A stretch of DNA of 63,999 bases, counting the filler, from Gonapodya sp. JEL0774 (lineage: Eukaryota): NCBI GenBank assembly GCA_027604505.1. It is 10 parts of 10 records of this genome, joined end to end, with 100 filler letters (N's around TTAATTAATTAA, not from the genome) between each part and the next. Parts side by side here need not be neighbours in the genome. Positions count along the whole stretch, not along the records: positions 19,602 to 26,020 come from JADIIX010000595.1; 9 more parts are not named here. One strand, given 5' to 3'. A model generated the notes under the pieces. The model was not told the origin of the DNA. It ran no database searches and saw nothing but the letters and a program-made list of their open reading frames with translations. Positions 7,845 to 39,043 of this stretch are shown piece by piece (positions within the stretch are counted from its first letter, which is position 1; each line of letters starts with the position of its first letter). Both the position numbers and the translations under genes were made by a program.

Positions 7845-8119
7845 GCGAACTACAAATGTGTGAGAGGTATGATTTGAGAAATAATTAATATGATTTTGAT
7901 TTTGGAAGTGATTGCGTAGTCACACGTTCTGGTTACAAAATCGCTTGAGTGGGGCTGTAAAATATGGTCATCTTTGCACGCGATAACCCACGCAGAATTG
8001 AGCACTGAGTCGGCGATATATCGCCGCAGCAGCGTTTCGTACGGACTCCATAATGTGAAAATAATGTTCTTATTCGCAATCGGTCAAAGTACAACCTCTC
8101 ATAGATAACTGACTCCATG

Positions 8120-9858
8120 TCACGCGGCAATGGTCCTCGCATGATTGAAATCCCTACGCTTTTCCACCCTCCTTCAACGCCAGCAACTGCCTCGTCCGGA
8201 ACGCTTCGTAGTGCACCATTGCGGTAGTATCAATAAGGTCCTGCAAGTGAGTACGGGTAAGGAACTGGCGGAGGTGGGGGAACTCGCAGTGTGTTGGGTC
8301 TTCGACTGTTGTTCATGACACAGATCCAAAGGCGGTTCAAATAGCAGTCAAACGGATGAGAGGCGGCTGAGCACCTACCATTGATGGTTCCCCACTTCGT
8401 TTTGCGACCGCGAACCATTTTACCACCAACACTGACAAGTTGTTCGGAGCCAACGATGGCAAAGGGGACGATTGCCTGTGTCGGTGGAATATCACTTTGT
8501 CAGTCCAGCCTCTCGCATCGAGCCCAACCGATTCGTACACCATGAGTGTCCTCAACTCACCGCGACAACCTTGTCCTCCTCCTCCTCGCCAATATCCCCT
8601 TCCCATCCTTCCACATCAACACCTACGACCTTCTTGGCCGTGCGCCCTTTCGGGTAGTACTCGATGCCGTTGAAGTCCAGCTCCTTCCGGACACGCTCCT
8701 TGAAAGATTCACGCTCAGCCAGGGTCAGAGAGTCGGCCTTGGAGATGACGGGGACAACGTTGCAGATGGAGGAGAGGGCACGGAGGACGGTAATGTCGAT
8801 GGGGCGGAGTCTATTGAGAGGGAGGAGGCCCAAAGTGTTCCTATGAGCTTTCACGAGAGAAGAGCACAACCTTGGATAACTGCTGAAATATGTCCGAACG
8901 GTTTCGGGATCACGACCAAGACTCAAAATTTGGTGACATTCACCGCTCCCTTTTGTCTGTTTTGGGAACCCTGAACCATCTATGACATCACGGTGTCAGC
9001 TCAACTCACGCGTGACCACTGGGTTCAATAAAGTACAATACACAGTGCACCCTCGTGTCGGGAATCCGTTTCTCCCTCTGGGGTGTCAGTTCGCGCCTCA
9101 AGAACGCGGCGTACTGCTCCTTGACGTAGCGAACAATTGCGTCCCAGCAAGCGTCGTTGTTGACTTGGTCTCCGAAACCGGGGGTGTCGATGATGGTGAG
9201 ACGGAGGCGGACGCTGTTTTCTTCGAGAACTAGTGGGGGAGTGCGTGGAACAGTTCGAACCTCAGCGTCTGTATTATCCTCAACGTGCAAGCGCAGACAT
9301 CCATGTTCTGTCCATACCGGAAGACGGAGCTTCCTAGTCACACAATCGCTCAGTAGGCCAACTTTCGTTTATGTGTGATGCTTTGCGAGTTCCATCGCCA
9401 TCTTGAAATCTATGCATCCTTACTCTTCTCCCGACCACTGAAAAGTCACTTTCTGGGGAGGGGCTTCCCCGAAAATCGCTTCGCGAGATCTCCCCGGTGT
9501 GACCAGCAATATCAACTCACGGTGCGTTACTGCCTGGATCTCAGTAGTACTTTTGACATCTGCTGCACTCCTGGGACCCTGGTCCTCCATCACGTGGGCA
9601 GCGTACAAGGTGTTGACCAAGGTGGTTTTACCCGATCCCGTAGGGCCGACGAGCATGAGGTTGAAGCGGAAGCCTTGTTGGAGGAATTTGCGCTCGTTTT
9701 GGCGGAGGATTGTGTCGAAACCGACATAGTCGGTCAGTGGAATCTTGGGTGGTGAATTAACGCAATGGTTGAGCAAACCGTAAGAGCAAAATCTATCGGT
9801 GAATGTTTCAGAGCACTCTGGTGGTCCGTTGAATATAATGAACCTTTTCCTGAATCAT
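8120..9858 (-). CDS. CDC10: Septin, Cdc10 group (multi-exon)
   Basis: YVGFDTI, G1 GPTGSGKTT, G3 DTPGFGD, DTRVHCVLYFI, G4 SKAD, RGRKTKWG and HYEAFRTRQL are present. The short C-terminus has no coiled coil, as in Cdc10. Confidence 0.88.
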
Positions 9859-10113
9859 GGGGATTGAGTGCAACCTGTGTCACGCTCACAAATGAGAGGC
9901 ACCAGGCGATGTCAAAGAGCGTGGGTTCTCTCCAAAGAGGCGAGACGTTCTAACGAAGGATTAACGACCCGAATTTCCGGTGTGACGTGTGCTGATGTGG
10001 GATACTCCCCAATACGCCACATTCGAAAGGTGTCAAGCCCACCCCTTCTCTCCACCTCCACGCTTCATTGGAAATCAAAGTACGGATCTCATCCTCCGAC
10101 TGACCTTTTTCAG

Positions 10114-11491
10114 CCCAGGGGGTCCAGCTGGTGCCGGAGCAGGGGCAGGAGGAGCGGGAGCAGCCATGTTGGTTCAGGGAGAATGGAACGAAGAAAGGCA
10201 GAAACAAAGCGATGTCGATGTGATAGAAGACGACACGCGGGCAGCGGGAGAGCGGGTCGTGCGATTTGCGACCTGTACAAGAAGCTTTCTGGAAGGAGCA
10301 AGTGGCACACAAGGAGTGCTGGTTGGTTCCCCTGTGGAGTGTCACATATTTGGTGCCACAATCCGGTGTTGAAACCCACGCTCTCATTTCCGGACGAGAA
10401 ATCTTCAATGCAATTGACATCCCCATCCCCCGACAGCGAGATAGACTCAGCGACCATCGAAAACGGGGACAAACTCCTGGAGCTCACCGAGTCTCGAGAA
10501 GACGGATACCGAGCGCTGATCGGAGTGTACTCTCAATTCTGGAGGGATGCGGACGCTGGTGCTGACAATTACACGCGTCACACATCGACTGTGAAGCGCA
10601 AGCGTCGCCAACTGGCTGTGAATCAGGGAATTGAAGCGGTTTCAGTGCTTGCCTTCAGCGAAAGTCCAGCTGCACGGAAACTTTGCACCATCCTCTTCGC
10701 CAGCTCATGGGGCAGGGACATGGCCCTCCACTGCTTCCCGGACTCTCCGACTCGTGCCAGCGAGTCCACGTTCAATTATTGTATGCTGGCCATAAGATCT
10801 CCGGCCCTTCGCTCCCTCCTTGTTCGAACCCCCTCTCAAACTTCTTCCCCGTTTCATCGCAGCTGTCAAGGAGGCATTGCATGAAACACTCGCCTACTTT
10901 GTGTGCCGTAGTTCATCAGAGGAAACTGATGATACGATGGCAGGATTGGCCACTTCATGCCTCCAGGTCCTCTGCGATCTCTGTGCGATGTTCGACAGCA
11001 CTACTGCGGGGCGCTATGTCACGTTACTAGAGGGATTTGGAAAGCTGCACTCATTGCTATCAGTCTATATTCGTGCTTGGACAAATGGCAGTCGATTGGA
11101 CGAACTTGAAGGAATGCTCGCGTGTTACTTTTCCCATGTGAAGGTCCTCGCCGGTACGTTTGACTTAAAATTTAACATTTTGCGGTTGGTGCCACCGACA
11201 CTTGAAGTGCAAGATCCAACTGAATGGGTTGCTGAGAGACGGAAAGCAACCAACAGGGCCTCCTTGGAGAGAATATGCGCAACCATTGGTTGCAACAACA
11301 TGGAATCCACAAAAACCTGCGCACGATGTGGAGTAGTCATGTATTGCAACGCGGATTGTCAGCGTGCACACTGGTCGCGACACAAGGTGGTGTGCCGCAA
11401 GGACTTTTGGAACGTGGAGGGAGTGGCGACGGACGTGCCGGAGATGTGGAGGGCGGTGATGCCGTTGGACAGTGTGGAGGAGGAAAATTAA
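10114..11491 (+). CDS. MYND-type zinc-finger protein (5' structure uncertain, apparent frameshift near 10830)
   Basis: C-terminal CATIGC...CARCGVVMYCNADCQRAHWSRHKVVC matches the zf-MYND consensus. Confidence 0.7.
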
Positions 11492-11851
11492 AGTACTGTA
11501 GAAAATCAAAAGCATTGATGCTGTTTTTCGGGCATCCCGTCGTCGTGGTGATAATCGCCGTACAGCTTGAATGGCAGTACTCTGCGTTGTCGTAAGGAAC
11601 GGTATTATTGTCGTGGTCCATCTGAATGATATCGAGTAATATGAGCACGCTAATTGCTACCAAAAATCCCACCTGTGTTCCGTTCATGAACATGATGACG
11701 TCGTGTGTCTTGCAGTGTGCACCGAGGCCTGCTCATGCACCCTTTTCTCAAAAGTCCCCGACTACACAAAAACATATTTTTACATTCAGCAACCTGTATA
11801 CACAAGAACCCCCTACCCCCAGTCTTCCCCTCCCAAGTCCCACCCCCGCGC

Positions 11852-12974
11852 TCACACCCCTGCCCCCCACCCCCACCTCCTGCCCACCTCTCTTCCAATA
11901 ACCTCCATCTCCCTCTTCCCACCACCACCAAGCACGGCCGCGTTCTCCTGCGCGCGGCGCAACAGGTACGGCACGCACACGTCCACGGGGCCGTAGGGGA
12001 CGTACTTGTGGGCCCGGTAGCCCAGCTGGGCGAGCGTGAGGGTGTGGATGTCCATCATGCCTTCGTGTGGGGTGGGAAAAGGTGGGGTTGGGTTGTGAGT
12101 GGGACGCAGAACGGCGGAAGAGGGGTTACGCGGGACGAGCAGCGCGCGTGTGCTGGCTCATGCTCACCGTACAACTGCGCGAAATTGACCACCCCACTAC
12201 CCGGTTCGAGCCCCACATCGTGCATGAGGTCCATCGCCTTGACGATGCTGTGTGAGTTGTGGGTGGCGATGATGAGCGACAGGTCGGTCCGGCCACGGGA
12301 GTACTGTGGGAGGACCGGGGCGTCGTGGTGTCGGGGTGGTGAACAGGGGTGAAGGGGTGGGAGCGGGGCACGTGGGAAAATATAGGGCCACCACGGGCGT
12401 CAAATGTCAGGTCCTTTATCCGCCCCCCACCCCCCGCGCCCGCCCTCCCCAACCACCCCGCCGACCCCCGCCACCCACCCACCTCCCGCAGCACCATCTC
12501 GACCGCCTCATCGTACGCCCTGTGCGTGTCCTCGATGGTCGCGTGGATGGGGTCCGGAATGCCTAACCTGTGCCGGTCCGGTCGGTCCAGTACAGTGCGG
12601 GTGCCGGGCCGGGTCGTACGAGGTGCGAGGGGCGAGGGGCGAGTGGTGTCGGTGGTGAGCAAACCACGCACCATCCGATACGCACCCCCACCCCCACGAC
12701 TCACTCCCCGGCCCTCTCCCTCTCCGACACCATGTAGGCCCCGCGGACCACTTTGACGCCGTACGCGTATCCACCCCTCTTACTCCGTTCCACCTCGTCT
12801 CTCAACCTCGCCACCCCGTCGCGGAGGTACATTTGCACGGTGGTGAAGAGGGTGACTTGTTCTTGTGCCGTGTCGGTCCCACGGTCACCGGCACCGGCGG
12901 AGCGCGAGTGCGCGTTGAACTCCTTCATACACTGCGCGACCACCTCGTCCACACCGGGTTGCACGGCCTGCCAC
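11852..12974 (-). CDS. PUT1: Proline dehydrogenase (proline oxidase), 3' portion, multi-exon
   Basis: TVQMYLRD, GVKVVRGAYM, IIATHN, FAQLYG/MMD, KYVPYGPVDVCVPYLLRRAQEN. Confidence 0.92.
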
Positions 12975-13074
12975 NNNNNNNNNNNNNNNNNNNNNNNNNN
13001 NNNNNNNNNNNNNNNNNNTTAATTAATTAANNNNNNNNNNNNNNNNNNNNNNNNNNNNNNNNNNNNNNNNNNNN
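12975..13074. other. Artificial contig spacer
   Basis: N44-TTAATTAATTAA-N44. Confidence 0.99.
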
Positions 13075-16000
13075 GGAACTGTGTAGGTGGTGCCGTTGTC
13101 GTACGTGCGAGTTTCAGTTAACGCCAACGCAACGCCGTTGAGTAGGAAGTCGTATCCGGTGTTGTAGAAACAAGTCGGAGCACCAGGAATCGGGTTCTTG
13201 TTCAAGACATCACCGAAGCCGATCATGGAGCTCGCCTAGTTTGTCCGATCACTGGGGTCATTCACAGGGCTACAAACACAAACTCATGCGTCCAGAAACA
13301 CTCACCTGTAGAAGGCCAGACACCGTGGCGGTAAGAACTTTGGTGTCAGCGACGTTGACTTGCGCGTAGGATCCGAGAGCAAGAGCCTGTCGACCAACTT
13401 CAGCGGAAACAACACCGAGAAGCTGGGTAACATTTGCCGGAGCGGGAAGCGTGGTAACATTGGCGAGAATGGTCTGTGCAGCAATGGCATTATACAGCTT
13501 GCCAGCGAGGGTGTAGAGTTGTTTCACGGTTGTATTTTGGGCCTCCGTGGCGTACTGCCACCTCTTGAAGCTGTCGATAGTGTCAACGATCGTCTTGTTG
13601 TTAATAACAGACTTCGTGAGAGTCAGGGAAGCGTCGCTCATTCCACCGACGGAAATGCCTGTAAGGTCAAAGATAAACTTCTCGCTTTCGAGACAAAAGA
13701 CTTCTTGTCCCAGCCATTCGTGGCGAATGATCGGGATGAAAACTCCTCGTGGATACCTATGATAAGGATGCTCGACATCACTAAACTATTGATTCGCAAT
13801 GAAAGAGGGTAATTCGGAAAACATACGCTGTCCAAACGAGGAGATACTTGAACAAGGATCCCCCAGGCCGAGCAAAAAGGAAACTGTCGGTGATATACCA
13901 TCCAGCGAGAAGGATACCCCAGAAGTAGTGAATGTTGAAGGCGGCGTTGGCATAGGGAATGGACTAAAAACAGACAAACATTCTAGCACGCTGATACACT
14001 GTTGGCATAATCCGTTCTGTCACGAACCGCAGCCATATACGCGCACAGCAAGTTCCAACCCGTGACTGCCCAGCACTCGAGCACAAAGTAGAGAATGTAC
14101 AATCCGAAAAACTCAGTGAGCCAGTTGGATAGACTGAATGCGATCAGAATGCACACGGCCTTAAAAGACGATGAATGAACAGAAAGCAAGTGAGGGCGGG
14201 CTCCTATGCTTTTCAAGAACATCAATACCGACCATCATGAATGATAAGAAAATGAACTCCACCAGGAAGTTTGTGACGATGAAAAAGAATCGGTTGTAGT
14301 AACCCGCAGCCCTATTCAATATCGCGTAAAATGCATGAATCTCGGTGTTTCCCTAGCAAAACCAAAACTGCTTACTCACTCCTCGTGGTAGTACTGCTTG
14401 CGTTTCTCCAGCCCTATCGAGAAGGATGATTTAAAGAGAAGTTACCTAAAGAGTCTTGAATGCCAAAACGAACAAACGCTTTGTATGCGTACAGTAGGCA
14501 ATTGCAGCGGATCCGAATCCGGGTGTCATGAGCTTGAGAGCAAACAGTTCCGAGATTCTGAGAGGATTTTTGCATTCAATTAGGACAGGTTGGATCAGAT
14601 GGGATGACTTTAATGACTCACTTTCCACTGGATGCACTGTAAGAGCGGCCGAGACGGAAGAACGCCAAACCAAAGAATATCGAAGTGAAAACTGCGGCGG
14701 CAAATCGTGACGTGCTCATGATAGGATTGCGTATGTAGATTCGTGTTTGACGCAAGAACAATTGCTGGATCTGTACGACACCCGACGCCTGTTGGTAAAA
14801 ACCGAGGTTGTCCTTCCACGTTGGCTGCTGGTCCAGTCCGATGGGTTTATAGTTGCGAATAGATCCTTGACCCGAATGAATGGCTATTGGAGATCGATCG
14901 CCACAGTTTCAAAACTCGGGAGGACAAAAAACTTCGAATCAAACAGGGCACTATAACCCACCATCAACAGACTTCTCAAGAATGTCCTTTTCACGGGCTT
15001 TCTCCCAAGCTTCAATCAGCTTGTCTGGATTTGCAGCTTGAGCGTCGGCATAAATCTCTGCTGGGTTTCCATGAACCGGAATTCCCAGGTAGCTCTCAAA
15101 GTAAGAGATGCAGTCAGACACACGGCCGAAGTAGCACATGCGTCCATTTGCAAGCAGTAAAAGGTTATCGAATTGCCTCAAGATTGTGTACGACGGTTGA
15201 TGGATCGTCGCAACTGAGGTGTAGATCGAGAGTGAGGAAAGGAGTTAATGACTCCGATCAATTGAAGCTCACCGCAAGCGAGTTTGCGCAATTTGACAAC
15301 CTCGAGTGTATTCTCGACGACTTCACGACCGGTGTTAGAATCCAAGCCCGTTGTCTGTACAAACGATGGTAAGTCAATCAAACGAAAGAAGCGAAATCAC
15401 ACCCAGTCGTTTCTTTGCTTCTACGCACGGGTTCGTCTAAAAATACCACGGAGGCGACTGGAAGAAGCTCCACCGCGACGTTGACACGTTTGCGCTCCCC
15501 AGTCGAAAGACCACGGACGAGCGCAGAACCGATGCGGTTGTTCTCGACGTAGTTAAGCCTCATCACAGACAAAACATCTTCGATCTTTGATGTCATTTGT
15601 TTTGAAAACGGTGCATATTGTGCGTCAGTTCGGTGGCCATACAACCGCTCTATGCAGTGAATGTTGAAATACTCACACGAGCAACTCTCTGCTCTGCCGT
15701 CCACTCGGTTGGGAGCCGAAGAGCGGCGCAGAACTCGAGTGCTTCCCGAACCGTAAGCTCCGGAGGAAGCAAATCATCACTGGTTACTGGTGTGCAAGCA
15801 GGTATGAGCTGAGCAACGATGCGACATAACCATGATGACTGCGAGACACGCACCATAGCCGTTGTGCTTGATGAAAGTTCGTTGTGTGAGCTTCTCTCCG
15901 CTGGAGTATCAAAATTCCGAGTTGAGATTGAAAAAGTTAAGTGGGAATCGAAGATGATACTCACTTGAGCATAATGTCCTGCGAGAATGTGCCGGTGGTC

Positions 16001-19601: not shown

Positions 19602-22509
19602 CGACGTGCTCCAGCAGCGTGACGGCCTTGCCCACCTGCCCGTTTGCCTGGTACGCCTGAGCGAGTGTCATCTGCGAGGCGAGGCGGTCCGGGTGGTCCT
19701 CCGCCAATCCTGAGAAGACAGCAACGACGTGCTCCAGTAGCTTGACGGCCTTGGCCACCTGGCCGTTGGCCAGGTACGTATGAGCGAGGTTGTGCTCCGA
19801 GGCGAGACGGTCCGGGTGGTCCTCTGCCAGCGTCCGCTTATAGACAGCGACGATGTGCTCCAGCAGCTGCACGGCCTTGCCCACCTGCCCGTTGTCCCCG
19901 TACGCGTTAGCGAGGTAGTTCTGCGATTGGAGACGGAACGGGTGGTCCTCTGCCAATTTCGTGGATTCGACGGCGACGACGTGCTCCAGCAGCTCCACGG
20001 CCTTGCCCACCTGCCCGTTGACCCGGCACGCGGAAGCGAGGACGGCCTGTGATTCGAGACGGGACGGGTGGTCCTCGGCCAGTTTCAGCTCATCCCGTCT
20101 TCCGATGTCACATTTCTGGAGCCACAACACGGCTTCTGGCACTCTGCCGTCCTTCCGCAAGCATTGCCCGATCCAAAAGCAGAGGTCGTATCGCTCCTTC
20201 AATTCCTTGCCTTCACTGCTTCCAAGCACTTTCACGGCATGCGGGAGGTACGCCCTCCACACATCCCTCTGGTCCCAATCGTCTGTTGGAAAAACTGTTG
20301 CGATGTGCTGGATTGCTTCTCTTGTCTTTTCTGCCGCGAGGCCCTGTATCCGGAGCCAGTCTCCAGCCGCCAGATGCACTAACCGGTGGATATCGTACAT
20401 GTCCTGGTCCTTCCGAGGCGACACAAAGGCGTAGCTGGTGAGAACACTGATTGTATCTGATACATCTATTGCATCCCCTTTGAGTGGTAGGATGGATCGT
20501 GGGATCGCCTTAGACTCAATGCACGACATAAATGAGAGGAGATCTGCTGCCATTGGAGACCTCTCGCGGATCTGCATGAAGGAGACCAACCACGTACTCA
20601 TTACCGCATTTTTTGATCCTTTATATTGTTGCTTATTCACAAATTCCTTGCTGAGTAATTTTGCTGCAGCATGCTCCTTGCTTTTCAGCAGTCCCATGTA
20701 CCCCTCGATTGATAACTGAACATTGTTGTTGATGTACGCTGCTGCCTGAGAGAGTGCCAAAGGTAGATAGGTGAGTTCCTCCAGAAATTTATCCACGTTT
20801 GCAGTGTCGTTGAGCAACTCTTTCCGGATGAGGGACTTTTGAAGTAAATCTTTCGCTTCCTGCTCGTCCATGGCATCCACGTCAATGACATCGGTAACCT
20901 CCAGTGCCACTGCGACTTCCCGAGTGCGAGTTGTATACAGGAAGAGTCCTTCGTCGCTCTGTGGAAGGTAATCGGCGATTCCCTGGGCCACCGCAGATCC
21001 GGTAACAAGTCCGATGTCGTCGGCGTTGTCGAGGATGATGAGCCAGACGCCGGCTTTCTTCGTACTCAGATGCCGCTTGACAACTTCCTTGATGTCGTCA
21101 TCCTTTTCCGAAGGTATGCCCAGTGTTCTTACAATTTCCCTGCACGCTTGTTCGAAGCTTTCCATGCTGACTGCGGGCAACCAAAACACAGAGCGTCCTC
21201 TGTCGGCATGCTCTTGCTTCACTTGGTAAGCAAACTCCAGAGCGACTTGAGTCTTCCCGACTCCGCCGAGACCGACGAGCGCCATATGTCGGCACTCCTC
21301 GTTGTGCAACAGCTTCTGCGCCAGCTGTCGGAGCTGCGATGTGCGGCCCACAAAACGGGGATTTCGTGGAAAAGGGATGTAGGCTGTTGCATCAATGACC
21401 GTGAGGGTGAGTTACAACTGAAAAGGATGACACTGTGCGAGGCACGACAGCAAAACAAAAGCGCGAACCTCGTGTTCCCGGGTCAGCCCTCGGTATCCCC
21501 AACAGGAGTTCCTTGGCACATGCTGCAGATGTGCCCGCCGCGTACCCTTGCCAGTTGGTGTTTTTGTGTGAGTCCGCATAGTCGGAGATACCACGGATGA
21601 TGAGGCATGGGAAATGGTTCATAAGCCCTGCTGCTTCCATCTCGAAGCACAGAACTCCTCCGAGCTCTTTGCTGGCCTTGTCCCGTTGCACCCCGTCCTT
21701 CATGTCCTGATTCCCGGATGCAATCAAACCGTAGTGAACCACGGGATCTACACCCATCCGGTCTGGCCGCGATGTCACCTGCATGATTGGGTTGCAAGAC
21801 CCGCACGTGTGGTGGCCACGTTCGTGATTGTATGTGGGATGGAATAAGATGTCTGGACCGGCAGTCTCGCGATTGAAGACTGGAAGCCGTCTAAGCTTCT
21901 CAAGGTGTTCCGCGAGGCGGATATCTCCAGCAAGATGATTGGCTTGAATTTGGCTGACGGCATTGAGAAGCAAACGGGGTGGACTGTTAAGATATCCCTT
22001 TCGCCGGAACCCCTCCGAAGTGTGTTCCCCGAAGTCGTATTGCACCACACCACCGTATGTTTCAAAAGGCTGACTGACAACCACGTCTCCCAGACGAATG
22101 TCTGCTTCTGGGCTGGGAACGCCGCCTCCGATGCCCACCATGAGACCGAACTGCAGTGAATCGAAGGTCCGTCCGAGGTTGTTCGCAACCGTAGCGGCAG
22201 AGTTTGTCCCACGATTTCCGGCCGGAAGACAAGCGACGACAACATTGTGAACCCCGATCCGTCCGAAAGAGTAGATGTTCGGGTCCCTCTTGTCCCGATC
22301 GAGTGGTTGATATTCCTCATCAAACATTGCCCGGGCAGCCGCGAGCTCGGTCGGAAGAGCGCATATCCACCCAACGGTATACTCGTCGGAACGCAGGCGT
22401 CTTGCCTTGGAGCCATCTGGAGTCGCAAAGGGGTGTGTATGGTAAGTTGACAACTGTGATCCGGAGAAACACTCTGTCAGGGATCACCTCCGGCACGCCC
22501 GTCCGACAT
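19602..22509 (-). CDS. Fungal NLR: PNP_UDP (nucleoside phosphorylase-like) + NB-ARC + TPR repeats; 3'-truncated
   Basis: The PNP_UDP region has YTVGWICALPTE, GLMVGIGGG, DIRLGDVVVS, CFEMEAAG and IIRGISDYADSHKN. The NB-ARC region has Walker A GLGGVGKT, Walker B LIILDNADD, LPLAL and IHRLVH. About 42-aa repeats (LAEDHPxRLxS...NGQVGKAVxLLEH) follow. Frame-restoring introns are at 22417-22487 and 21384-21468. Confidence 0.92.
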
Positions 22510-22846
22510 TTAATTCAATTCTCTGAGGTATAAATATGGTGTTTCCTTGGGATTTTCTGCCTAGGAATCTCCAAATTGGGGGATATCGTATGAGGAATTG
22601 CTGCTGCTGAAACGGGCCACGGTCACTGATGATAGATATCACAAGTACCCTGGTCCAGCACGTTCCTGGTTTGAGAATACAGTTGCGCTAGGAATCAACT
22701 CAAGGTGAGCAACCTAGACCAGCCAGAAAGGGAGGTCATTTATTTTCGGGAGTATATGGTCACCATCACCCCCTTCATCGAACTCCCCTTCATCAAACTC
22801 ATCGAACTCACCGTCACCATCACACTCTAATTCGACATTGCCAAGC

Positions 22847-23386
22847 ATGAGTGACTACCCTTCGGGAGGGACGTATGCTCCTAACTCGGCTGAGTTAACC
22901 AAATTACTGAGTGATGCGTGTAAAGTTGCAGGGATTGAGTCTTCGTGTGCTACAAATCAAGCAATTCACGATTTGATTCAAAAGGAGTCGGGTGGCCGTG
23001 TCGGTATTCCAAACTACACGATGTCTAATTGGTTGCCATCTCCCTTTAACATAAGCGACCTTCAGAGTCGAACAGATTTATGGCCAGCATTGTGGGAAAA
23101 AATGAAATCAGGGGATCCCGCCTACCGAGGCAGCACCGGCACTCAATCCCGAAGGGACTGCATAGGTCTTTTTCAAGTGTGCTTTGATTCAGGATCCACT
23201 TCCCGAATGCTCAAGGACAGTTCCGGAGCGCCAGCACTCGGCAACCCACTAGCGGAGGCCGTCGGGGGGCTTCTTGGAGTCAAGGCGGTGTACGGTACTC
23301 CAGAAATTCTATTGTACGGCGGAACAAAACCCGACGGATCGTGGTGGGGTGGATACAGCTCCGGATCAGGGTGGGATGGATGGTAA
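22847..23386 (+). CDS. Lysozyme-like / soluble lytic transglycosylase (SLT)-like protein of bacterial type
   Basis: Intronless domain with LIQKESGG (catalytic Glu in ES motif I), IGLFQV (motif II) and NPLAEAVGGL..VKAVYG (motif III-like). An in-frame Ser/Pro-rich stretch precedes the ATG. Confidence 0.65.
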   Translation: MSDYPSGGTYAPNSAELTKLLSDACKVAGIESSCATNQAIHDLIQKESGGRVGIPNYTMSNWLPSPFNISDLQSRTDLWPALWEKMKSGDPAYRGSTGTQSRRDCIGLFQVCFDSGSTSRMLKDSSGAPALGNPLAEAVGGLLGVKAVYGTPEILLYGGTKPDGSWWGGYSSGSGWDGW

Positions 23387-23717
23387 TGGCAAGCTCAAAC
23401 GCGAGCCAAAGTACATCACAATTGATTCGTCTCTTATTTTTGGATATCAAATCGACTGAATCAATGTTGCACTTTTCACACAATGATGTATGAACAAGTG
23501 TTGTAAAAGTGCAACTCATATATATGATCTCAATTTGATTGAAAGTACGTTCCATCCACCACCACCGCCACCAACCGTTCGAGTTCGCCATCCGTCGACT
23601 TCGTTCTTGAGAATATGGACGTGGATGGCTTTGCCATGTTTTTGGAAGTCCCTACTCCGTCGATACATGGTCACTCGTATTAGAATTGGTCAATCAATTT
23701 GGGTGTATTGCTTGGCT

Positions 23718-25487
23718 CTATCTTCTAGGGCGATATTTTATGATCAAGTATGCAATAATCCATGCTCCAACCATCACTCCCGCAAAAACAGTACCAATAA
23801 TGTACGCCGTTCCGAAACTTAGTCCCGAACGTACAAAGTGAACAACACTGTAAGCAAAAGATCCCGCAATGGCAGCTAACCATAGAATTATGAGGGCGTG
23901 ATCGGTCAGCCTCGTAAGCGCCTTCTCGGCTCTGGGCGATGTCCCCCACGTCGTGTGCCACACCAGGACTAGCGCTTGCATCTTGGCCATCAACAGCCCA
24001 GCCATGTACATAAAGGTGTATCCGAAGAAGAGGAGGAAATCCGGCCGGCGTGTGATGATCAGCGGCACAATTGCCCTGACCAATCCGACGAATATGAAAA
24101 TGTCGATCCATAACACGAAACGCCACAGATCCGCTGACACAAATATAGATATAATGTTGAAGAGAAGCAGGAATGGGTACAAGGTCTGGAAGCAGAGCTC
24201 AAAGAGCATCCAGGCTGAATGGCGGTGAGCAAAACGCAGGCTGATCAAGCACTCTCGATAGAATGACTTCGACCACCGTGTCTGCTGGGTGACCCATCGA
24301 AAGAATCCGGTCGGCGTTTCCGTGGCGCACGTGGCTAGGTGGGTGTATTTGACTGTCCAACCTGCTTTCAACACCAAATTTGTCAAGTGGCGATCGTCGC
24401 CAAAGCTGCACGGCCTTCCGAAAAATTTCTGGTCGGCCCATTCATCCACAATCTGGTTCAATACCGCTGTCCGATACACGCCCAGAGGTCCCGAGACGCA
24501 CATCACGGTTCCAAAGTACGACTGCGCCGCCCGCTCGATGTTGAAGGCCCACCAGTACCGAAGGGAGCTCAGGAAAGAAACGGCAGTCTCCTGATTGAAG
24601 ATGCCGACGTCGCCGGTCACCGCGCCGACGAGGGTATCAGACGCGAGTATGTACGCGAGTTCCCCCATCGAGAGTCGGTGCAGCTCCGTGTCTGAATCTG
24701 TCACCATCCACGCGTCGACGGCTTGGTCCAACTTGAATCCTAGGTACATTGTGGCTCGCTTTCCCGCATGTTTCTGGACAATGCATATCACATTGCTGAC
24801 CATCGCGTCCGCTGGTACCTCCCTAAATGAATTTGCAAATACCACCAGTGCACTGGGGAACACTTTGGTGAACACTTGTCGCATCTCCAAATCTGCCGCA
24901 TGGTCGCTATTCCCATCTATGACAACAATCGTACGCCTGAGCCCGCCGTACGAAATGTCCTTCGCATGCCTCAGACAGCTCTCAAACAGTTCGGCTTTCT
25001 CTCGGTAGCCCACAATGAGCAGATTGACAGAGGGCTGTGTCCATGTATTTCCAGCAGCGTTTCTCGACTTGTTCAATTGAATGCGATGCGTGATCGCAAA
25101 TGCCGTTTGAAGAACATAGTACGCGGTGATCAGAACGCCGTAGACTCCGAGACCAATGTATGTCGATGTGACAAGGTGCCAACGAAGCGCGTATGACGCG
25201 ATGACAACTCCGATGAGAATGCAGGCAACGGTCACCGAGAAGATCGACCGAATAATGAGCTGGGTAGTGGTCAGTGACGAAACTGACTCCTGGCGAGCGA
25301 CGGAGTCCACACTTTTGAGCGACGCCTGCGTTTTTTCGGGAAAACTGATCTCAGTTTCAAGAACAGAATCATACTCGAATGTAGAGAAATTCATACGTAC
25401 CGGTGGTGGATCACTGCTGATAATCTTGATCACCACGTGTTCAGAGCCCGACGATGAATTCGGAATGTCAGAGGAAGAAGATTCCAT
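23718..25487 (-). CDS. Class I hyaluronan synthase-like GT2 processive glycosyltransferase (intronless, about 589 aa)
   Basis: Two N-terminal TM helices, then VIDG, GKR, DSDT, SLRYWWAFNIERAAQSYFG, CVSGPLGVYR, FGDDRHLTN, QQTRWSKSFYRE, C-terminal TM helices and WGTS. Confidence 0.85.
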   Translation of the reverse strand: MESSSSDIPNSSSGSEHVVIKIISSDPPPVRMNFSTFEYDSVLETEISFPEKTQASLKSVDSVARQESVSSLTTTQLIIRSIFSVTVACILIGVVIASYALRWHLVTSTYIGLGVYGVLITAYYVLQTAFAITHRIQLNKSRNAAGNTWTQPSVNLLIVGYREKAELFESCLRHAKDISYGGLRRTIVVIDGNSDHAADLEMRQVFTKVFPSALVVFANSFREVPADAMVSNVICIVQKHAGKRATMYLGFKLDQAVDAWMVTDSDTELHRLSMGELAYILASDTLVGAVTGDVGIFNQETAVSFLSSLRYWWAFNIERAAQSYFGTVMCVSGPLGVYRTAVLNQIVDEWADQKFFGRPCSFGDDRHLTNLVLKAGWTVKYTHLATCATETPTGFFRWVTQQTRWSKSFYRECLISLRFAHRHSAWMLFELCFQTLYPFLLLFNIISIFVSADLWRFVLWIDIFIFVGLVRAIVPLIITRRPDFLLFFGYTFMYMAGLLMAKMQALVLVWHTTWGTSPRAEKALTRLTDHALIILWLAAIAGSFAYSVVHFVRSGLSFGTAYIIGTVFAGVMVGAWIIAYLIIKYRPRR

Positions 25488-25572
25488 GTTCCGAATGTCA
25501 AAGAAGGGAGAATGGCTCTTCTTATAAGGGAGACGGAGATGCAATGCCACAAACGCTGCGGTTGGACTTGCC

Positions 25573-25611
25573 TTTTTTTTTTAGTTTTTTTTTTTTAAAA
25601 AAAAAAAAAAA
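25573..25611. promoter_or_regulatory. Poly(dT)/poly(dA) palindrome upstream of the HAS-like gene
   Basis: T10-AG-T12-A15, about 85-125 nt upstream of the ATG at 25487. Confidence 0.45.
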
Positions 25612-25646
25612 TTAATTTTATGAACTATATATGCGCTGTCGATACC

Positions 25647-26020
25647 GGATGGGACATGATGAGGATGGGGATGAGGATGGGATCAGACTTTCTGAAACTT
25701 TTCGAAATCCGCATCCGGGATGGGGATGGGGATAAGGATGGGATCAGACATTCTGAAACTTTTCGAAAACGGATGAGGATGAGGGATGAGGATGGGATCA
25801 GACATTCTGAAACTTTTCGAAATCCTCATCCGGGATGGGGATGGGGATGAGGATGGGATCAGACATTCTGAAACTTTTCGAAAACGGATGAGGATGAGGG
25901 ATGAGGATGGGATCAGACTTTCTGAACCTTTTCGAAATCCGCATCCGGGATGGGGATGGGGATAAGGATGGGATCAGACATTCTGAAACTTTTCGAAAAC
26001 GGATGAGGATGAGGGATGAG
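25647..26020. repeat. Tandem repeat with alternating 61/54-bp monomers (115-bp higher-order unit), running off the contig end
   Basis: The core GATCAGAC[AT]TTCTGAA starts at 25681, 25742, 25796, 25857, 25911 and 25972. The linkers are GGGATGAGGAT-type. Confidence 0.95.
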
Positions 26021-37296: not shown

Positions 37297-39043
37297 TCAC
37301 GACCCCCGCAGCTGCTCCAACGCGACTCGCGCCTCCCACGTCCCCGCCAGCTCGTACATCTCAATCGCCTCGTTGATGTCCTTCGCTAATCCTCTAAGTC
37401 CCGTTTCGTACATCCGACCGAGACCCACTGCAGCGACCACGTCCCCCTCGTCTAGTGCCTCTGTGTACAAGCGCGCGGCAGTCCCTAGGTCCTGATCTAA
37501 TCCTCCTCGACCGTCCTCGTACATTGCAGCCAGTAAAGTCTTGGCCCCACACCGGAGATCTTTCAAGTAGTATTCCACTGCTTTTTGGTCGTCCTTTGCT
37601 CTTCCGCCCCACCCGCGCTCATGTAGAATTCCAAGGGCGAGGGTCAGTTCACCATTACCTGATTTTGTAAGAAGATTCTCTGCCCTCTCCACATCACGAT
37701 CACACCCACCGAGACCATGCTGGTGGAACAAGTATGTGAGATTGAACTGGGCCATCGCACTGCCTTGGTCCGCAGCTGCTGTGAAGAGTTTCTTGGCTTC
37801 ATGAATATCCCGCGATGTGCCGCGGCCGCTGACGTACATCCACCCGAGGTTGTTTTGCCCCATTGCATCACCCTGATCAGCGGCCCTTCTGTACCACTTC
37901 ACAGCCTCCGCCTCGTCCTTTTGCACGCCCTGCCTGTTGGTGTACATGAGTGCGAGATTGTGCTGGCCTGGTGCATCACCCTGGTCGGCGGCCCTCCTGT
38001 ACCACTTCACAACCTCCGCCTCGTCCTTCTGCACGCCCTCTCCATTCGCATACATGACACCAACGTTGTACTGGGCCAGTGTGTCACCCTGTTCTGCGGC
38101 CCTCCTGTACCACTTCACAGCCTCCACCTCATCCTTCTGCACACCCCACCCGTTCTGGTACATCAAACCAAGATTTGACTGGGCCGGTACGTGCCCCTGG
38201 TCGGCGGCCCTCCTGTACCACTTTACAGCCACCGCCTCATCCTTCTGCACACCCCTGCCCTGCTGATACATGAAACCAAGACCGACCTGCGCATCAGTGT
38301 CACCCTGGTCGGCGGCCCTCCTGTACCACTTCACAGCCTCCGCCTCGTCCTTCTGCACACCCCGCCCGTTGTCATACATGTTTCTGAGATTGAACTGGGC
38401 AAGTGCATTATCCTGGTCGGCAGCCCTTCTGTACCACTTCGCAGCCTCCACCTCATTCTTCTCCACACCCTTGCCGTTCTCGTACAAGAAGCCGAGATTG
38501 CACTGCGCCTTTGGATTACCCTGGTCGGCCTCCCTCCAGTACCACTTCACAGCCTCCACCTCGTCCTTCTGCACGCCCCATCCGTCTTCGTACATAATAC
38601 CAAGATTATACTCCGCCAGTGCATAACCCTGGTCGGCGGCCCTCCTGCACCACTTCACAGCCTCCGCCTCGTCCTTCTGCACAGTCAAACCAGTCTCGTA
38701 CATGAAACCAAGATATGACTGTGCCGGCGCATGTTCCTGGTCAGCAGCCCTCCTGTACCACTTCACAGCCTCCGTCTCGTCCTTCTGCACGCCCCGCCCA
38801 ATCGCGTACATAATGCCAAGGATGTACTGGGCTAGTGCGTGACCCTGTTCTGCGACGCTCATCCACCTCTTCACAGCCTCCATGTGGTCTTCTGCGTGAC
38901 CTTGACCGAAATAGAAGCAAGTACCCAGGTCAAACCGTGCCTGAAGGTTACCATTTTCAGCGGCACGTTGGCACCACTTGAACGCAGATTCGAGGTTCTT
39001 TGGAAGTATCCCAAGTCCATTCTTGTAGAAAAAGTAGAGTTTA
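37297..39043 (-). CDS. Sel1-like repeat (SLR) protein, intronless, 5'-truncated
   Basis: About 15 tandem 36-aa repeats of the form AQxNLGxMYxxGxGVQKDEAEAVKWYRRAADQG. The frame stays open upstream of 38883 to the contig end. Confidence 0.93.

Follow-up and report, generated by a model that had tools for sequence, protein, structure and literature searches.

A six-helix hyaluronan-synthase-like glycosyltransferase of Gonapodya sp. JEL0774 points to an apparently undescribed fungal branch of the vertebrate/viral enzyme family

The window analyzed in this study, a stretch of 63,999 nucleotides, consisted of 10 contigs of the Gonapodya sp. JEL0774 assembly joined by 100-base N linkers. A single intronless open reading frame (ORF) at positions 23718-25487 (minus strand) encoded a hyaluronan-synthase-like GT2 (class I) of 589 amino acids. 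We consider it somewhat better than an even chance that this protein is a six-helix class I enzyme of the hyaluronan synthase (HAS) type belonging to an early-fungal family, that it was inherited in the chytrid lineage, and that it would form and export an acidic polysaccharide, most likely hyaluronan. Gonapodya is a member of Monoblepharidomycota.

The ORF ran from 25487 to 23718 over 589 codons with no internal stop, and all seven motifs on which the original prediction had relied were located in its product: GKR at residue 242, DSDT at 264, SFLSSLRYWWAFNIERAAQSYFG at 304, CVSGPLGVYR at 330, CSFGDDRHLTN at 360, QQTRWSKS at 401, and WGTS at 514. The uninterrupted GT2 frame claimed for this locus was accordingly confirmed. 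A motif scan of the 589-aa protein detected neither EDR nor QRRRW, the motifs of fungal chitin synthases. When PDB sequences were searched with the synthase, Xenopus HAS1 (E 2.3e-85) and chlorovirus HAS (E 8.4e-82) were retrieved, and the only five sequences at E<=0.001 belonged to these two enzymes. The premise that introns occur in the host genome was also correct: an Epl1 gene model on a separate contig carries four, and the gene for an NLR protein on the synthase contig carries one of 85 nt. However, about 25% of ordinary early-fungal genes are reported to be intronless (PMC11291939), and the missing introns are therefore weak evidence of transfer. A retrogene origin of the intronless synthase was also considered and was dropped because the A/T tract, a poly(T)/poly(A) stretch at 25571-25615, lies upstream of the ORF (~85-130 bases before the start codon) and not downstream of it.

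An AlphaFold2 model of the synthase (pLDDT 81.8, pTM 0.80, with a low-confidence stretch at residues 1-49) predicted six membrane helices at 74-100, 109-145, 425-451, 454-479, 519-554, and 560-584. A Kyte-Doolittle count fused TMH1-2, and the helix number was taken from the model. In the predicted layout, TMH1-2 (74-145) are followed by a GT-A domain at about 154-390, TMH3-4 (425-479), and TMH5-6 (519-584); interface helices lie at 302-324, 395-422, and 482-507, and the gating loop WGTSPR (514-519) lies between IFH3 and TMH5, the helix names being assigned by analogy to the solved enzymes. Foldseek ranks 1-13 of the model were occupied exclusively by hyaluronan synthases of Xenopus and chlorovirus (TM-score 0.69-0.73, E 1e-33 to 5e-29), whereas cellulose and chitin synthases ranked lower (E>=1e-11, TM<=0.49). 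The GT-A signature of class I-NR enzymes (DxD, GDDR, and QxxRW) was found at D264/D266, G363-R366, and Q401-W405, and the six membrane and three interface helices of that class were present in the predicted model, which is not a solved structure.

Functional residues taken from PMC11750622 and PMC12987647, together with flanking motif residues, gave 26 positions for comparison. The synthase agreed with mammalian HAS2 at 25 of them and with L002, a stand-in of the chlorovirus type, at 24. The pocket/channel residues given in the available text of these two papers are K177 and R341 of the Chlorella virus PBCV-1 enzyme (CvHAS) and R287, R296, C307, W491, T493, and R496 of the Xenopus enzyme; the corresponding GlcA pocket/channel residues of the synthase were present as K243, R404, R310, R319, C330, W514, T516, and R519. 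One channel residue differed by a count on the pairwise alignment, in which Xenopus H72 corresponds to Y123; in the same alignment, K448 corresponds to R471. Bacterial and archaeal outgroup rows retained most of the 26 residues, and hence the compared residues mark the family rather than the product. These sequence comparisons and the predicted fold support the assignment of the synthase as a vertebrate/chlorovirus-type six-helix class I hyaluronan-synthase-like enzyme. The PDB matches, the fold, and the absence of EDR and QRRRW also uphold the earlier claim that the motif string is of this type and unlike that of chitin synthases.

The synthase shares six membrane and three interface helices with Xenopus HAS1 (PDB 8smm/8smn/8smp; class I-NR, 'alpha' type; TM-score 0.69-0.71), and it shares with vertebrate HAS1-3 the GLYG-like GVYG, DxDT, GDDR, QQTRW, and a WGTS-x-R loop followed by TMH5-6. 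However, it is 38% identical to HAS2, falls in a separate clade, has a single exon, and carries Tyr at the equivalent of H72. CvHAS (PDB 7sp6-7spa, 8snc-8sne, 9yq2-5) is similar in architecture (TM-score 0.70-0.73) and likewise intronless, and its H174 corresponds to H240 of the synthase, whereas the identity over the structural alignment is 31% and the loop reads WGTRG instead of WGTSPR. The stand-in L002 adjoins UDP-glucose dehydrogenase/GFAT, neither of which is next door to the Gonapodya synthase. Cryptococcus Cps1 and the 'gamma-type' enzymes resemble the synthase in being fungal GT2 proteins with KR, DxD, GDD, QxxRW, and a WGT gating loop and in being proposed hyaluronan makers. As described in the available text of bioRxiv 10.64898/2026.02.21.705424, however, they have three helices and WG[T/S]R followed by a disordered tail, and stand apart from the animal and viral enzymes. 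The synthase, with six predicted helices, WGTSPR, and two helices after the loop, is set apart from them by that description.

NodC and fungal chitin synthases have in common with the synthase a processive GT2 core and QxxRW. An inherited or ancient family member could make chitin or chito-oligomers on a hyaluronan-synthase scaffold, a reading that we consider improbable. It would fit a weak Chitin_synth_2 match, the finding that the best NCBIfam model is NodC, reports of chitin oligomers formed by some hyaluronan synthases, and a giant-virus relative (L019) that adjoins two chitin synthases and a deacetylase. However, the synthase scored 184.7 bits on the NodC model (TIGR04242) against a cut-off of 550, QRRRW was absent both from the synthase and from all 89 named fungal relatives described below, R310 and R319, which are linked to GlcA handling, are kept, and the predicted fold is far nearer to hyaluronan synthases than to chitin synthases (TM-score about 0.4).

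A protein search with the synthase gave 446 matches at E<=1e-20, the composition of which was taken from the best 120. These comprised 89 proteins of named fungi, 14 of animals, 16 without an organism name, and the synthase itself. The premise that such genes are rare in fungi thus did not hold, and orthologues across fungi, the presence of which the original prediction had named as an argument against itself, were largely found. The 89 named fungal matches were divided into 41 from Mortierellaceae, 36 from Mucorales, 8 from chytrids or anaerobic gut fungi, and 4 others; within the best 120 of 446, their identity reached 46%, higher than that of animals and viruses. The top named fungal matches were from Chytriomyces, Piromyces, Polychytrium, and Anaeromyces (40-43% identity). 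The nearest relatives are fungal proteins annotated as 'hyaluronan synthase 3' (Chytriomyces, Polychytrium, Piromyces, Anaeromyces, Terramyces, Geranomyces, Endogone, and Mortierellaceae), which have motifs and layout in common with the synthase and of which the zoosporic ones are 38-43% identical to it. The 'hyaluronan synthase' labels that many members carry in public databases are automatic annotation.

Among 30 further matches, members were found in Geranomyces, Physocladia, the aphelid Paraphelidium, Basidiobolus, and Saitoella, as well as in Heliocybe (with Neolentinus), Tilletia, Pseudomicrostroma, and the annelid Owenia. A family member was also present on a contig whose genes follow the peritrich ciliate code. 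An alignment-based scan of viral contigs gave 32 loci with 28-36% identity, whereas a single-protein scan of viral contigs gave none; relatives in prokaryote bins amounted to 80 loci with 28-39% identity. The synthase search returned no second protein from Monoblepharidomycota, and neither did the search with a housekeeping control. With respect to gene structure, the relative at an anaerobic-fungus locus was intronless like the Gonapodya synthase, and a Mortierella-like locus (L185) contained a GT-AG spliceosomal intron within the WGTS codons. The gating loop of the 89 named fungal relatives was WGT[S/T]xR in 79 and WG[T/S]R in nine; the latter were all Mortierellaceae models diverging at the site of the L185 intron.

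Subsequently, the position of the synthase was examined in two trees. With FastTree (352 rows), it was placed within a mostly fungal set of 62 rows (SH 98). With IQ-TREE under LG+C20, using 68 rows hand-picked out of the 352, it was placed in a 16-row clade (95/95) consisting of chytrids, Neocallimastigomycota, Endogone, Mortierellaceae, four unnamed proteins, and one EukProt transcript, separate from the chordates (100/98) and from the chlorovirus-type clade (100/99). Proteins shorter than 370 aa, the self match, 6 of the 80 prokaryotic loci (short frames), and 4 short-envelope rows were left out of the trees; 80 metagenome loci were compared by BLAST only, and CvHAS itself was represented by the stand-ins L002 and P0119. 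Species trees place Monoblepharidomycota with Chytridiomycota and Neocallimastigomycota (PMC9457484, available text), and a chytrid-rich clade is therefore the expected place of an inherited gene.

The sister clades of the chytrid-rich set were Mucorales and Basidiobolus plus Dikarya. In the LG+C20 tree, the fungal members formed three clades and two stray rows on a poorly resolved deep backbone. Mucorales copies formed a clade distinct from that of the Gonapodya synthase, and the Mortierellaceae rows clustered with the chytrids and not with Mucorales, which requires old paralogy or transfer. The branch of the synthase was long (0.76) and its supporting internode short (0.06), the nearest rows being the unnamed proteins P0007 and P0013.

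Alternative positions were compared by AU tests under LG+G4, a model with more false rejection than mixture models. Fixed-backbone placement, using 44 of 131 positions, gave the best fit beside P0007 and P0013. A sister position was rejected for the chlorovirus-type clade (0.008), for crown chordates (4e-35), for two giant-virus clades (0.014 and 3e-9), and for the Saitoella-basidiomycete clade (8e-6). Three stems were retained, namely that of a 9-row animal-containing clade (0.15), that of Physocladia together with the chlorovirus-type clade (0.069), and that of a 7-row giant-virus-rich clade (0.060). The global test, a weak one based on fast LG+G4 searches, rejected one of five alternatives, a giant-virus clade (0.002), and retained the animal-containing clade (0.37), the chlorovirus-type clade (0.12), one giant-virus clade (0.10), and prokaryotes (0.11). 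On these sequence data, a recent animal or chlorovirus donor appears unlikely, inheritance within zoosporic fungi would be the simplest reading, and an ancient transfer at the base of the synthase clade may have occurred. With close relatives in many early-branching fungi, inheritance of the gene is more likely than its recent acquisition from an animal or virus; the foreign look of the neighbors of the synthase and the gene uptake reported for G. prolifera leave room for an ancient transfer.

The neighbors lie on the synthase contig, a segment of 6,419 bases (19602-26020) with three genes or ORFs. A fungal NLR recognized by Pfam (PNP_UDP, NB-ARC, TPR) occupies 19602-22410 (minus strand) and is partial, running off the contig end at 19602; removal of its 85-nt GT-AG intron (21384-21468, minus strand) opens a frame of 880 codons from 22327 to the contig end. 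The 120 best matches of the NLR protein showed 39-59% identity, and the named ones were all from filamentous ascomycetes, with no zoosporic fungus among them. The second neighbor, at 22847-23386 (plus strand), is an intronless ORF of 179 aa placed tail-to-tail with the synthase. It gave no profile match in Pfam, PHROGs, or NCBIfam; its first ESM Atlas match (0.94) was of the SLT family with 167 of 256 features in common, which offers a lead that it may resemble soluble lytic transglycosylase/lysozyme-like proteins of bacteria and phages. Judging from their sequences, both neighbors look foreign. Beyond the synthase, a tandem repeat of 54/61-bp units with a 115-bp higher-order period (96% matches) extends over 25658-26020 to the contig end and likely caused the assembly break there.

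These flanks bear on the possibility that the lineage acquired the synthase laterally, with a giant virus or another eukaryote as the donor, as part of a patch of acquired genes; such a gene may still make hyaluronan. The ascomycete-like NLR, the bacterial/phage-like ORF, and the intronless synthase would agree with it, as would the many foreign genes reported for G. prolifera (PMC11291939, available text), the several separate giant-virus clades carrying the family, a sister position of the chytrid Physocladia protein to the chlorovirus-type clade (98/95), and the rejection of only one of five alternatives in the global AU test. We nevertheless regard it as quite improbable, given that the best matches and the tree position are fungal and that the fixed-backbone test rejects placement with the chlorovirus-type clade, with crown chordates, and with two giant-virus clades. 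Furthermore, no viral hallmark gene was recognized among the three ORFs of the contig, a context of 6.4 kb, and a PHROGs search with two of its proteins matched neither. Acquisition from an animal or from a large DNA virus, the latter being the route considered in the original prediction, is thus not supported in view of the fungal clade (95/95), the host-like composition, and the lack of a recognized viral hallmark gene on the contig.

The composition of the contig was host-like. Its tetranucleotide r was 0.85, eight of the nine other contigs gave 0.74-0.90, and the repeat-rich one gave 0.14; the values of 24 GC-matched foreign loci, none of them ascomycete, were <=0.77. Codon usage of the synthase correlated with that of host genes at r 0.42 (leave-one-out range of 8 host ORFs, -0.01 to 0.49) and with that of two viral genes at -0.10 and -0.47. 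A contaminant, for example from an ascomycete, or a chimera would account for a short contig in a fragmented assembly and for an NLR whose named matches among the 120 best are ascomycete only, and the composition controls included no ascomycete. This explanation is nonetheless highly improbable, since the synthase clusters with zoosporic fungi rather than with the Saitoella-basidiomycete clade, and both the composition and the short, weak-signal intron are like those of other contigs.

According to the available text of bioRxiv 10.64898/2026.02.21.705424, a survey yielded 68 fungal candidates, to which chytrids contributed 4 and Mucoromycota 5 and which are all described as three-helix and Cps1-like; the survey used Cps1 as the seed and WG[T/S]R as a filter. 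We infer that this survey missed most of the six-helix family, although its Table S3 could hold some members. A fungal family of this kind is not mentioned in the available parts of PMC10939387, PMC12346304, and PMC5122149, and no experimental or phylogenetic study of a six-helix fungal HAS clade was found in the literature searched, in which few subscription journals were covered. Recent texts, so far as available, recognize no hyaluronan synthase of fungi other than Cryptococcus Cps1 and treat the enzymes of fungi, animals, and viruses as having separate origins. The Gonapodya synthase points to a fungal branch of the vertebrate/viral HAS family that is apparently undescribed.

More tentatively, the vertebrate/chlorovirus HAS type might be an old eukaryotic family from the ancestor of fungi and aphelids, with many early fungi making true hyaluronan or GlcA wall polymers. 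The family would then have persisted in chytrids, in Mucoromycota and Zoopagomycota, and in some Dikarya, with the annelid and the ciliate-code contig as further holders, and giant viruses would have picked it up several times, the chlorovirus type being sister to a chytrid protein. If this were true, the HAS type would not be a chordate invention copied by one algal virus, and the family would either give many early fungi true hyaluronan or supply the missing synthase of their GlcA wall polymers. As a one-off transfer, the finding mostly dissolves; it matters as a pointer to the family. A six-helix fungal family makes testable both the source of the vertebrate and chlorovirus enzymes and the identity of the maker of early-fungal wall GlcA polymers, and its enzymes could become new tools for hyaluronan production.

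The substrates, product, expression, and role that we infer for the synthase follow the solved Xenopus and chlorovirus enzymes. By analogy to these, a single cytosolic GT-A site would alternate between UDP-GlcNAc and UDP-GlcA, with D264-x-D266 holding the metal and UDP, D365 acting as the base, and W405 serving as the acceptor platform. K243 and R404 would form a basic pocket for the GlcA carboxylate, R310 and R319 may retain GlcA units at the channel mouth, and gating of each cycle would fall to the WGTSPR loop. The enzyme would act as a plasma-membrane monomer that uses GlcNAc for priming and then extends the non-reducing end by GlcA and GlcNAc alternately, giving for hyaluronan a polymer with alternating beta-1,3/beta-1,4 linkages. 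The chain would be exported through a channel within the enzyme itself and become a wall or surface gel. In our judgment, which was not computed, hyaluronan comes close to an even chance as the product, another GlcA polymer is rather unlikely, a chitin-like product is more doubtful, and another product or an inactive protein has only a slight chance.

Within the same inherited fungal family, another GlcA polymer could be a homopolymer like mucoric acid or a GlcA-hexose copolymer, and the UDP-GlcA transferase whose activity was measured in Mucor, membrane-bound and dependent on Mn2+, would in that case belong to the family. Mucorales walls contain 12-25% polyuronide, including mucoric acid (>90% GlcA), and the available text of PMC6433966 describes the membrane Mn2+-dependent UDP-GlcA transferase without naming its gene; the family is broadly kept in Mucorales (36 matches in the best 120 of 446). 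The GlcA-binding arginines kept in the synthase are compatible with this reading, as is the report of fungal hyaluronan for Cryptococcus only (bioRxiv 10.64898/2026.02.21.705424, available text). However, chlorovirus HAS is reported to turn over UDP-GlcA poorly without a GlcNAc acceptor and not to use GlcA as a primer (PMC12987647, available text), the acceptor collar of the synthase (Y311, F315, C330, W405, and S408) is identical to that of hyaluronan synthases, and the Mucorales copies are a separate clade. We consider this alternative unlikely as a full account of the gene.

Hyaluronan formation, the product that we favor, draws on UDP-GlcA. A motif scan for UDP-glucose dehydrogenase gave no hit in the 64-kb window; the same scan missed viral copies that were found by Pfam, and its blank result is therefore weak. 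Of 28 loci scanned, most of them viral, five had UDP-glucose dehydrogenase in one of their nearest ORFs; four of these five were of the chlorovirus type and lie outside the clade of the Gonapodya synthase.

Members of the synthase family were found within gene clusters of giant viruses. On L002, a locus standing in for the chlorovirus hyaluronan synthase (CvHAS), the genes for GFAT, the chlorovirus-type synthase, an alginate-lyase-family protein, and UDP-glucose dehydrogenase adjoined one another (7895-13767). On L019 (146-7121), the HAS-like gene was clustered with a polysaccharide deacetylase gene and two genes resembling chitin synthases. In the tree, the sister of the chlorovirus-type clade was a protein of the chytrid Physocladia obscura (P0179, support 98/95), a position that suggests a possible exchange between fungus and virus at the origin of CvHAS. 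The chytrid protein carried a WGTRG loop; the observation also concerned P0177.

A full-length hyaluronan-synthase-like gene on L166 (3152-4800, plus strand) was uninterrupted only when TAA and TAG were read as Glu (NCBI table 30, the peritrich code), which also brought back the conserved FNVER motif. The same was noted for L144, and the family may reach ciliates. Among animals, P0147 of the annelid Owenia fusiformis was a family member placed outside the chordate clade, and marine or transcript sequences (P0173, P0180, P0185, L116, L118, L124, L125, and L132) were sister to or near chordate HAS.

In the Mortierella-like gene on L185, an intron (720-830) interrupted the WGTS codons. Without splicing, the reading gave WGTR followed by a stop codon; hence, unspliced introns of this type may account for nine truncated-looking Mortierellaceae models.

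On the contig of the synthase, an NLR with PNP_UDP, NB-ARC, and TPR domains was located at 19602-22410 (minus strand). Every named match among its 120 best came from filamentous ascomycetes, making this gene of a Monoblepharidomycota assembly a candidate for fungus-to-fungus transfer or a sign of contamination. An intronless 179-aa ORF (22847-23386, plus strand) resembled lytic transglycosylases/lysozymes, with likeness to actinobacterial and phage proteins, and is possibly an acquired antibacterial gene. Just upstream of the synthase, tandem repeats of 54/61-bp units (25658-26020) contained a palindrome of the TTTTCGAAAA type.

Elsewhere in the window, the contig at 39144-45550 differed from the other nine in its low GC content (0.42), its strongly depleted CpG (observed/expected 0.21), and its 151-305-bp tandem repeats; this contig is possibly methylated repeat DNA. 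An intronless gene at 37297-38883 (minus strand) encoded a 528-aa Sel1-repeat protein with 11 repeats matched.
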